DNA of 64,000 bases, taken from assembly GCF_030384885.1 (NCBI RefSeq), contig NZ_CP128613.1. The stretch is one strand, 5' to 3'. This DNA comes from Escherichia coli (lineage in GTDB: Bacteria > Pseudomonadota > Gammaproteobacteria > Enterobacterales > Enterobacteriaceae). Within the stretch, counting starts at the first letter, position 1. Every line of letters begins with the position of its first letter. This document shows positions 19,601 to 22,600 of the stretch, piece after piece. The position numbers were made by a program.

Positions 19601-22600
19601 AACACAGCAACTGGCGGATGATTAACTTGCCGGTTGGCCCGTTGGTGGACGGCAAACCGATTTATACGCTCTACATCGCGCTGTCTATCGATTTTCATCT
19701 TCATTACATTAATGATTTGATGAATAAACTTATTATGACCGCATCGATCATCAGCATCCTGATCGTCTTTATCATGCTGTTGGCGGTACATAAAGGCCAC
19801 GCGCCAATTCGCAGCGTCAGCCGTCAAATCCAGAACATTACCTCGAAAGATCTCGACGTTCGCCTTGACCCGCAGACCGTGCCGATTGAGCTGGAACAGC
19901 TGGTACTGTCGTTCAACCATATGATCGAGCGTATTGAGGATGTCTTTACCCGCCAGTCCAATTTCTCAGCGGATATCGCTCACGAAATTCGTACGCCAAT
20001 TACGAATCTCATTACGCAAACGGAAATCGCCCTCAGCCAGTCGCGCAGCCAGAAGGAGCTGGAAGATGTGCTCTACTCTAATCTCGAAGAGCTGACGCGA
20101 ATGGCGAAAATGGTCAGCGATATGCTGTTTCTCGCTCAGGCCGATAACAACCAGTTAATCCCCGAAAAGAAAATGCTCAACCTGGCGGATGAAGTTGGCA
20201 AAGTGTTCGATTTTTTCGAGGCGTTAGCGGAAGATCGCGGCGTAGCACTACGGTTTGTTGGCGACAAATGTCAGGTTGCGGGCGATCCGCTGATGCTGCG
20301 TCGGGCGCTAAGCAACCTGCTTTCTAACGCTCTGCGTTATACGCCGCCCGGAGAGGCAATTGTAGTGCGCTGCCAGACGGTCGATCACCAGGTGCAAGTT
20401 ACCGTCGAAAACCCCGGTACGCCCATTGCGCCCGAGCATTTACCGCGTTTGTTTGACCGTTTCTACCGCGTTGATCCTTCCCGCCAGCGAAAAGGTGAAG
20501 GTAGCGGCATTGGGCTGGCGATAGTGAAATCGATTGTTGTCGCGCATAAAGGCACGGTTGCAGTAACGTCAGATGCGCGGGGAACAAGGTTTATGATCAA
20601 ACTACCGGAGAAAGGTTAATTAGTTAGTTCAAACTCAAAGAGTGATGTATCGCCTTCTGTTATTATTTATCAATAAAACAGGGAAGACCTTATTGGTCGT
20701 CTGAAATCGACGGTTATTCATTTTCGGATATTTACGAGATATTTAGATATGCAATTTAATCAAATTCGTGTTTCTACCAATTGTAGAGCACAATGCTATT
20801 ACTAAATTTTCATCACTATAAAAGAATCGGCTATAATATAAAGCGCAGTCAGGCATCATTAATCTCTATATTATTCACACAATCTATTTATCAAGTGAAT
20901 TTGATAAATTCCTAATTTAAAATATTCACTATTAAGCCAGCGTCTAACGACGTTAAGATGGCAATGTGCAGATCATGTTATCAGGGTGGGGCGGTAGCGT
21001 ATATTCCTTATACAAACCATCATTCATTTCAATAATGTTTATTGAGTTATTTATTATTGTGAATAAAAAGACATTACAAATATTGGTTTGACTTTGCATA
21101 TCAGGTGTTTTTTTTGTTACTCGATGTAATATACGAGCCTGTCCTTAATAACATCGTGAACCCGTCAGTTGAGTTTGTGATTATTTTGTTGAGTCAACAG
21201 CCCCCTGTTTCTCTGAAGTAAAATCCCGGACAAAATCATCACATAACCATGACACTTTTCTGATATTCCCCGGTAACGCCTGAAGCCTGCCCGCTTACCT
21301 GAAGGCGCAGTCTGCGGGCAGGCACCGGATAAGTGAAGAGACTGACCAGTATGCCGGAGGCCACCGGCTGAAACAGGCCGGAAACACGCAGTATGACTAT
21401 GACGCCGCAGGCCGGATGGTCAGCCGCACCAGGCACCGTGACGGCTACCGCCCGGAAACAGAGCGGTTCCGGTGGGACAGCCGGGACCAGCTGACCGGGT
21501 ATTGCAGCGCACTGGGGGTGCAGTGGGAATACCGCCACGACGCCAGCGGCAGACGGACGGAAAAACGCTGCGACCGGAAGAAAATCCGTTTTACGTACCT
21601 GTGGGACGGCGACAGTATTGCGGAAATGCGGGAATACCGGGATGATAAACTGTACAGCGTACGGCACCTGGTGTTTAACGGCTTTGAGCTGCTGAGTCAG
21701 CAGTTCAGCCGGGAAAGGCAGCCGCATCCGTCCGTGGCCCCGCAGTGGGTGACGCGGACGAGCCATGCGGTAAGCGACCTGACAGGCCGCCCGGTGATGC
21801 TCTTTAACAGTGAAGGTAAAACCGTCTGGCGGCCGGGACAGACCAGCCTGTGGGGGCTGGCACTCAGCCTGCCCGCAGACACCGGCTACCCGGACCCGCG
21901 CGGGGAACTGGACCCGGAAGCCGACCCCGGCCTGCTGTATGCAGGACAGTGGCAGGATGCAGAATCCGGGCTGTGCTATAACCGGTTCCGGTACTACGAG
22001 CCGGAAACCGGGATGTACCTGGTGAGTGACCCCCTGGGGCTGGCCGGGGGGGAGCAGACTTACCGGTATGTGCCTAATCCATGTGGGTATGTTGATCCTT
22101 TGGGATTAGCAACGTGTCCCATAATCAGACAGCGGGTGCTTGCTAACCTCGAAGCCAGTCGGGCAGCAAGAGTTACATCAAATTTTGGTAAGCCTCTGGT
22201 TCAGGGAAATAAAACGATTGGCGATAAAGTAAGGGATATAATTGCCAAAGAGAGGGGAACCACTCTAATTGAACAAAATTATAGAGTGACAGGAGGATTA
22301 AGGCGTATTGACGTTGTTGATGGAGTAACGGGTATTGAATCTAAAGTCGGTCGAACAGGGATAACTGCCCGAGTACGGCAAGAGGTAGCCCGTGATATTA
22401 AGATTTTGAGAAGTGGGCAACTTGATCAAATTGAATGGGTGTTTACAAGAAGTCCAACTACAGGGAAGATTGGGCCAACTAAACCACTTGAAGATCTGTT
22501 AAATAAACATGGTATACCGATTATTTATCGATAAGGAGTGATAGTGTGAAACTCAAACCGATTGGTGATTTTTTAATTAATAGTGGGTTCGTGAAAAATA

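Follow-up and report, generated by a model that had tools for sequence, protein, structure and literature searches.

The 64,000-nucleotide stretch of Escherichia coli DNA analysed here (contig NZ_CP128613.1 of assembly GCF_030384885.1, referred to below as the window) carries, on the side of cusS towards nfrB, a truncated rhs gene immediately followed by a small gene encoding a DUF4304 protein. Very probably this is the stranded orphan cassette from the distal end of a type VI secretion system (T6SS) island of the vgrG-eagR-rhs type, made up of the final quarter of an Rhs core, a predicted PD-(D/E)xK toxin tip and an immunity gene, the delivery genes of the island having been deleted. The sequence analysis establishes the anatomy of the cassette, the deletion, the fold prediction, the conservation of the key residues and the linkage of toxin and DUF4304; nuclease activity, substrate, immunity function and expression of the cassette are what we infer. 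The main features, in window coordinates, are the following.

20620-21297, plus strand: AT-rich cusS-vgrG intergenic region, 678 bp, guanine-cytosine (GC) content 34.1%.
21284-22534, plus strand: truncated orphan rhs open frame (stop codon 22532-22534; preceding TGA at 21281-21283).
21296-21297, no strand: deletion junction with TA microhomology, at the meeting point of the left and right alignments to 2013C-4282.
21298-22108, plus strand: Rhs core fragment, 811 bp, equivalent to residues 1200-1470 of a full-length Rhs protein of 1611 amino acids (aa).
22073-22108, plus strand: PNPCGYVDPLGL, the PxxxxDPxGL motif that marks the Rhs core end and the toxin cleavage boundary, read from the translation.
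22109-22531, plus strand: C-terminal toxin domain (the tip), 141 aa, with conserved core residues from about 30 to 141 and a predicted PD-(D/E)xK fold.
22310-22345, plus strand: predicted active-site hairpin, with D68 at 22310-22312, E77 at 22337-22339 and K79 at 22343-22345.
22546-23103, plus strand: DUF4304 gene, 185 aa, GTG start, matching Pfam PF14137 with E 4.9e-9 over residues 7-75.

The initial annotation of this stretch described a reading frame opening at about 21283 with no real N-terminus. Indeed, the frame opens at 21284, and its translation aligns without gaps and with 93% identity to residues 1200-1611 of the 1611-aa Rhs protein of E. coli A15, in which the PAAR match is weak and below the cutoff. 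The first possible start codon is the ATG at 21416, which would give a product of 372 aa, as no ATG, GTG or TTG is found in this frame between 21284 and 21416; a further in-frame methionine codon lies at 22013, just 5' of the cleavage motif at the core end. A YD-repeat core with the canonical Rhs terminus had also been proposed, and the translated frame matches both the Rhs-associated core model TIGR03696 (E 1.3e-18, 67 bits against a cutoff of 32.5) and the YD-repeat model TIGR01643 (E 2.4e-8, 34 bits against a cutoff of 15.8), as well as the Pfam RHS_repeat family (E 4.6e-5). Judged by the strength of these homology matches, the orphan Rhs features are not due to chance. The core terminates in ...VSDPLGLAGGEQTYRYVPNPCGYVDPLGLA with the DPLGL cleavage motif, and the TIGR03696 match stops at residue 275 of the 416-aa frame, coinciding with PxxxxDPxGL. 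The drop in GC content after this boundary is pronounced, from 62.6% in the core fragment to 42.6% in the 141-residue tip, and the next open reading frame (ORF) has only 31.4%. An 811-bp core stub, a distinct tip and a DUF4304 gene, i.e., the components of an orphan Rhs toxin-immunity module, are thereby all present. The components of a deliverable full-length effector, namely an N-terminal PAAR or VgrG-binding region, a shell of about 1,400 aa or more and adjacent vgrG and chaperone genes, are not found in the window; a full-length shell with an adjacent vgrG is seen in the homologues of strains A15 and PapRG-06-3.

In many E. coli strains a T6SS island is located between cusS and nfrB. Its gene order is vgrG, a gene for a DcrB-related (DUF1795/EagR-type) chaperone, a full-length rhs, an immunity gene, one or several orphan rhs stubs with immunity genes, and an ISAs1 (H-repeat) element; the vgrGO1-eagR-rhs-ct arrangement has been described in a review of the E. 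coli T6SS (PMC6730261). Comparison with the near-isogenic strain 2013C-4282 (locus L013) identifies the part that is absent here. Window positions 12867-21300 correspond to L013 1-8434 at 99.94% identity and window positions 21296-22618 to L013 17379-18701 at 100%, the 100% match running over window 21296-30000, and L013 8432-17380 is missing, i.e., 8,949 bp. The lost segment contains vgrG, the chaperone gene, an rhs gene for a 1601-aa protein, an ORF of 177 aa and, from the orphan rhs ORF, its initial 314 nt; as the alignment indicates, the orphan was deprived of its 5' end, and the delivery genes and the main rhs with its immunity gene disappeared in the same deletion. The junction reads …CCCGCTTA/CCTGAAGG… (the slash marks the breakpoint), and TA is the sole microhomology. 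The exact junction is absent from all other complete E. coli genomes, which makes a recent deletion probable; a similar junction occurs only in NCCP12480 (see below). An AT-rich block of about 660 bp after cusS with no full-length rhs upstream had been reported initially; this block, 678 bp in length, is the ordinary cusS-vgrG intergenic region, because the window matches 2013C-4282 up to 66 nt before the vgrG start position (L013 8498). Sigma-70-like sites in this 5' intergenic block, at 20978-21036, are consensus matches only. In the proposed term "displaced orphan toxin module" the word orphan holds and the word displaced does not: to judge from the flanking alignments, the module is the distal orphan of the native cusS-nfrB vgrG-rhs island, and the upstream part was lost in situ.

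Several further observations concern the junction and its surroundings. In strain NCCP12480 (L005 6125-6145, compared with window 21290-21305) the cusS-vgrG intergenic region is fused to rhs at the identical right-hand nucleotide (…TA/CCTGAAGG), with the left breakpoint 8 nt further right than in the window and a different toxin tip after the junction. As the left ends differ by 8 nt, the deletion in NCCP12480 is, on this comparison, independent of that in the window. At window positions 21285-21323 the fusion created a perfect 10-bp inverted repeat (GCCTGCCCGC / GCGGGCAGGC) with the junction in its loop, for which an RNA hairpin of -31.6 kcal/mol (z -3.4) is predicted. The repeat, which may be a coincidence, was considered as a cause of the deletion and rejected: equally long matches between the region upstream of vgrG and rhs occur at chance level, and the junction of NCCP12480 is almost identical but lacks the repeat. 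Over window positions 18640-21297 this lineage is unusually divergent from several other E. coli, with identities of approximately 88-90% for the cusR-cusS genes and of no more than approximately 75% for the intergenic region downstream of them, compared with 94-96% for the flanking rhs core. This divergence suggests either an old allelic split or import at the locus.

The C-terminal tip had been considered unlike any characterised toxin, and this was upheld: no named toxin model in Pfam, NCBIfam, PADLOC or the PDB corresponds to it, and searches of Pfam-A, NCBIfam, PADLOC and PHROGs gave no model match of any kind. The domain has many relatives. A word-seeded homology search retrieved 24 close ones from E. 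coli, Salmonella, Pectobacterium, Yersinia, Morganella and Proteus, with 70-84% identical members in Morganella, Yersinia and Pectobacterium, and an exhaustive profile search (E<=1e-3) extended the family to 1,470 clusters at 50% identity. In the 169 proteins of the family that were retrieved, it is this domain that forms the extreme C-terminus, with a median tail of 0 residues. The proteins bearing it range from approximately 100 to 3,630 aa and include Rhs/YD-shell proteins, HINT-containing proteins and proteins named 'filamentous hemagglutinin'. In species-representative genomes 23 loci were found, distributed over Gamma-, Beta- and Alphaproteobacteria, Actinobacteria, Planctomycetes, Acidobacteria and Bacteroidota. 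Such C-terminal placement on varied carriers is, as far as sequence comparison can tell, the behaviour of a polymorphic-toxin tip, and together with a small co-varying downstream gene (see below) it gives the arrangement of a polymorphic toxin effector-immunity system.

The structure prediction for the tip gives a nuclease fold. The AlphaFold2 model of the tip, built on a 21-sequence alignment, has a mean predicted local distance difference test score (pLDDT) of 86.8 and consists of a helix (residues 29-48), three strands (54-60, 63-70 and 74-80), a second helix (87-102) and a fourth strand (107-113). This order of predicted elements is the alpha-beta-beta-beta-alpha-beta core that defines the fold of the PD-(D/E)xK enzymes. 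The D...(D/E)xK motif, recognised already in the initial annotation, lies in the tip sequence RRIDVVDGVTGIESKVGRTG, where D68, E77 and K79 are placed on the adjacent predicted strands 63-70 and 74-80; with an acidic residue upstream, this is the PD-(D/E)xK arrangement. All three residues (D41, E50 and K52 in the numbering of alignment A2) are invariant in 30 diverse members of the family, which are 33-82% identical to the window protein. In the same alignment D43, E55, R65 and D96 are at least 90% conserved, as is Q91 among 21 closer homologues; the hairpin spacing between D and ExK varies across the family. Most structural neighbours of the tip are DNA enzymes (NucS, restriction enzymes, SfsA and the DNase CdiA-CT of EC869), and a Foldseek search against AFDB50 with the tip model recovered members of its own family. 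The placement of the domain in a non-nuclease family by structure or profile search had been named as the outcome that would speak against a nuclease; the outcome favoured the nuclease fold.

The DUF4304 gene starts 11 nt past the toxin stop codon and is preceded by an AAGGAG Shine-Dalgarno sequence (22533-22538), 7 nt upstream of the GTG; an identical gene is labelled "DUF4304 domain-containing protein" in RefSeq. A DUF4304 gene is also found directly downstream of the tip in three distant Rhs proteins of 2,165-3,630 aa from metagenome and genome contigs. ORFs downstream of the tip were examined at 29 loci, i.e., 27 loci elsewhere and the window and A15 alleles. The DUF4304-type family occupies this position at 13 of them, those with toxins most similar to that of the window, while a family of approximately 175 aa is present at 11, one of approximately 110 aa at four and an unrelated protein at one. 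The three downstream families track toxin similarity, and in 22 of the 23 species-representative loci the downstream ORF starts between -29 and +13 nt from the toxin stop. Co-variation of this kind between a toxin and its downstream gene is, on the sequence comparison, that of typical toxin-immunity pairs. The DUF4304 protein is thus probably the cognate immunity protein, because the gene follows related toxins in distant phyla. Its AlphaFold2 model (pLDDT 89.7) displays an N-terminal beta-sheet followed by helical hairpins resembling tetratricopeptide repeats; no close solved relative of the model was found, and a literature search for DUF4304/PF14137 found no papers. The downstream families of approximately 175 and 110 aa (L025-L037, L011, L012, L024, L026 and L027) are candidate new immunity families in their own right, and the three downstream proteins looked up (L007, L011 and L012) have no Pfam match on record.

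Several points weigh against the interpretation of the cassette as a nuclease toxin with its immunity protein. The tip has no sequence-level match to a characterised nuclease in single-sequence and profile searches of PDB sequences, and its AlphaFold2 model was built on a shallow alignment of 21 sequences. The immunity function of DUF4304 is deduced from gene order only, and behind the more distantly related toxins of the family it is not DUF4304 but one of two unrelated small-protein families that is encoded. In addition, expression of the toxin part in the window strain is doubtful, because no ribosome-binding site is recognisable before the ATG at 21416 and no promoter has experimental support.

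Within E. coli the DNA encoding tip and immunity protein is present in 114 of 5,426 complete genomes (approximately 2%), once per genome and always on the chromosome. The allele of the window is found only in 2013C-4282; the remaining 113 genomes carry an allele that is 92.5-92.8% identical. The pair resides on the main 1611-aa Rhs behind vgrG in A15 and PapRG-06-3, and as a distal orphan in 2013C-4282 and AR_0067.

By analogy with known Rhs effectors, the toxin in strains with the full-length gene (A15 and PapRG-06-3) would be enclosed in the Rhs shell, autoproteolysis at DPxGL would free the tip, and the tip, carried on VgrG with the help of an EagR-type chaperone, would be injected by the T6SS into neighbouring bacteria. 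In the target cell it would act as a metal-dependent PD-(D/E)xK nuclease cleaving nucleic acid via D68, E77 and K79. DNA would be the most likely substrate, to judge from the structural neighbours and from RdnE and a Tox-REase-7 CdiA-CT, both of which have DNase activity (see below). In sister cells the DUF4304 protein would bind and block the toxin. From the locus in the window the toxin cannot be delivered, because the delivery genes are deleted; the immunity gene, with its strong ribosome-binding site, probably still works and would shield the cell against relatives deploying the toxin, and the toxin stub would be kept as DNA with weak expression or none. Recombination of the tip onto another rhs gene could proceed through the 811-bp core stub, which shares 94-96% identity with other rhs copies.

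As regards named toxin families, the tip may represent an unnamed and widespread polymorphic-toxin family of at least 1,470 clusters with the restriction endonuclease (REase) fold that has been missed by Pfam and NCBIfam, with DUF4304 as the cognate immunity in the E. coli branch and with a substrate that could also be RNA. That it is instead a divergent member of a named family, either Tox-REase-7 (PF15649) or RdnE/IdrD-CT, is possible but doubtful. Tox-REase-7, which includes CdiA2-CT of Acinetobacter baumannii DSM30011 and Campylobacter jejuni CJ488_0980 and CJ488_0982, likewise comprises REase-fold tips on Rhs, CdiA and type VII secretion system proteins. A member of the tip family by sequence (P0211 of Microbacterium endophyticum, A0A7W4V161; E 2.6e-37) and several Foldseek neighbours are called 'Tox-REase-7 domain-containing protein' in UniProt. 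The published motifs of Tox-REase-7 are GxxxE, IxD, ExK and Q, and its immunity partners are HEAT, Imm23 and Imm54 (Zhang et al., 2012). The tip consensus (PGAxIE ... ESK ... RQE) fits three of the four motifs, ExK and the downstream Q being common to both, and does not fit in the case of IxD, where it has RRVD. However, PF15649 matched neither the window protein nor P0211 at E<=10 and none of the 30 diverse members at E<=0.1, and no HEAT, Imm23 or Imm54 gene was seen among the downstream genes of the tip family, the partner here being DUF4304. In general, none of the 30 members matched any Pfam family at E<=0.001, and among the family proteins listed in three homology searches no precomputed toxin-domain Pfam match exists, the single record being HINT (PF07591) on P0122. 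The ESKVG motif is absent from one supplement of Zhang et al. (2012), and the Tox-REase-1, -4 and -6 groups are not in Pfam. By these sequence comparisons Tox-REase-7 comes closest among the named families, although membership in it is not demonstrated. The UniProt name of P0211, set beside the absent PF15649 match, is a discrepancy of release or threshold that bears on the naming of the family.

RdnE (IdrD-CT) of Proteus mirabilis is a PD-(D/E)xK DNase borne by an Rhs protein that degrades lambda and plasmid DNA; in its 138 aa the catalytic residues are D39, E53 and K55, and its closest relative outside Proteus is reported to be in Rothia, with 55% identity (PMC12483513). Like the tip, it is Rhs-borne and approximately 140 aa long, with an adjacent immunity gene and a family spanning several phyla; RdnE is delivered by the T6SS, its activity depends on D, E and K, and members of the tip family are found in Proteus too. 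They differ in catalytic spacing (D-9-E-x-K in the tip), in length and in the variable 'region 2' of RdnE, and the immunity protein RdnI is all-helical, in contrast to the DUF4304 protein with its beta-sheet N-domain. The closest relatives of the tip, 70-84% identical, are in Enterobacterales, unlike the Rothia relative of RdnE, and host species of RdnE number zero among the 23 genome loci of the tip family. Identity with RdnE/IdrD-CT is unlikely on the indirect grounds of spacing, length, immunity type and hosts.

Other characterised systems are more distant. Tox-REase-3 (PF15647), which is known from E. coli Rhs-CT3 and from O157-lineage Rhs proteins annotated as 'restriction endonuclease fold toxin', agrees with the tip in its layout of strand, hairpin and strand (RRIDVV...ESKVGRT in the tip, REYDVV...AQVKRT in the E. 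coli representative). The O157-type protein aligns with the tip in topology but has QxK where the tip has ExK, and a different immunity gene. Tox-REase-3 was rejected as the family of the tip, as the best Pfam E-value was 0.064, obtained for one of the 30 members, and hhalign gave a probability of 16.6% against the O157-type Rhs tip. The solved PD-(D/E)xK toxins CdiA-CT(o11) of EC869 and TseT/PA3907 (Tox-REase-5) share no detectable sequence similarity with the tip, and their delivery systems or immunity folds are different. The vgrGO1-eagR-PAAR-Rhs-CT/CTI islands of E. coli (Ma et al., 2017, as presented in PMC6730261) show in intact relatives the same order of vgrG, DUF1795/DcrB-related chaperone gene, full-length Rhs, immunity gene, orphan stubs and ISAs1 as the locus considered here, of which the window has lost the delivery half. 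According to the accounts consulted, these islands and the Salmonella Rhs orphans (PMC7043789) also have in common with the window a core ending in DPxGL followed by a variable low-GC tip and an immunity gene. The tip is not among the ten named Rhs-CT types (metallopeptidase-4, REase-3, toxin-55 and others) in the summary given in PMC6730261.

On the nfrB side the DUF4304 gene is followed by remnants and mobile elements, as listed below.

23112-23366, plus strand: rhs core remnant, 255 bp, with 88-92% identity to stretches inside the rhs core of L001, L002 and L013.
23510-24643, plus strand: ISAs1-family (H-repeat) transposase gene, an ORF annotated as ISAs1 family transposase at the matching position of 2013C-4282, which closes the island on the nfrB side.
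24642-26459, minus strand: group II intron, with Rfam matches RF00029 (24642-24717) and RF01999 (26342-26459).

The 255-bp remnant, with a GC content of 58.8%, lies directly after the DUF4304 gene, and its counterparts in related genomes are annotated as an incomplete hypothetical protein or an RHS fragment. Probably a further orphan began here and was severed by the ISAs1 element. The group II intron contains a reverse-transcriptase/maturase ORF at 24719-26236 and is flanked by the intact ISAs1 copy (23510-24643) and a 5'-truncated one (26413-27300).

An island so full of ISAs1 copies, rhs stubs and a group II intron, the deleted delivery genes and a toxin ORF without a proper start context could be taken to mean that the whole cassette is a decaying remnant in which neither toxin nor immunity gene is expressed or selected. 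We consider this somewhat unlikely: neither frame is disrupted and both match their counterparts in 2013C-4282 with 100% identity, all catalytic residues are kept, and the immunity gene retains its consensus AAGGAG. The intactness of the frames says little about selection, because the deletion looks recent.

The PD-(D/E)xK fold also occurs in other CdiA-CT toxins that cleave RNA. The toxin could accordingly have the same fold and be an RNase cleaving tRNA or rRNA, not a DNase. This is unlikely, since most of the structural neighbours named above are DNA enzymes and the characterised REase-fold toxins considered here act on DNA, as with RdnE (PMC12483513) and with the Tox-REase-7 CdiA2-CT of A. 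baumannii, which causes DNA damage (PMC6831553). The least probable of the readings is that the pair is expressed internally and modulates the growth of its own cell like a type II toxin-antitoxin system, as internal expression of main and orphan Rhs toxins does in Salmonella (Starsta et al., 2020; PMC7043789), where promoters are present within rhs, approximately 89 nt 5' of the stretch that codes for PxxxxDPxGL, and toxic products arise from internal start codons; the methionine codon at 22013 just 5' of this motif and the former vgrG upstream region that now adjoins the Rhs fragment would fit such a role, but a consensus scan found no promoter inside 21298-22108.

As a stranded distal orphan, the cassette of the window is a typical orphan Rhs toxin-immunity cassette; there is nothing conceptually new in it and its value is incremental. 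A mild novelty, as the searches suggest, is that a large family of REase-fold tips, apparently with DUF4304 as its partner, is unrecognised by the public domain models used. In contact-dependent warfare between bacteria Rhs tips provide the variable warheads, and cataloguing them helps to determine which strains kill or resist which. Naming the tip family and pairing it with DUF4304 would improve the annotation of thousands of proteins and provide a function for a domain of unknown function; if true, cognate immunity would be the first role for that domain. The window itself represents a clean and dated example of a locus in which the delivery system was lost and the immunity gene and a spare warhead were kept, and it is consistent with the view that orphan cassettes hold immunity in reserve and supply raw material for recombination.

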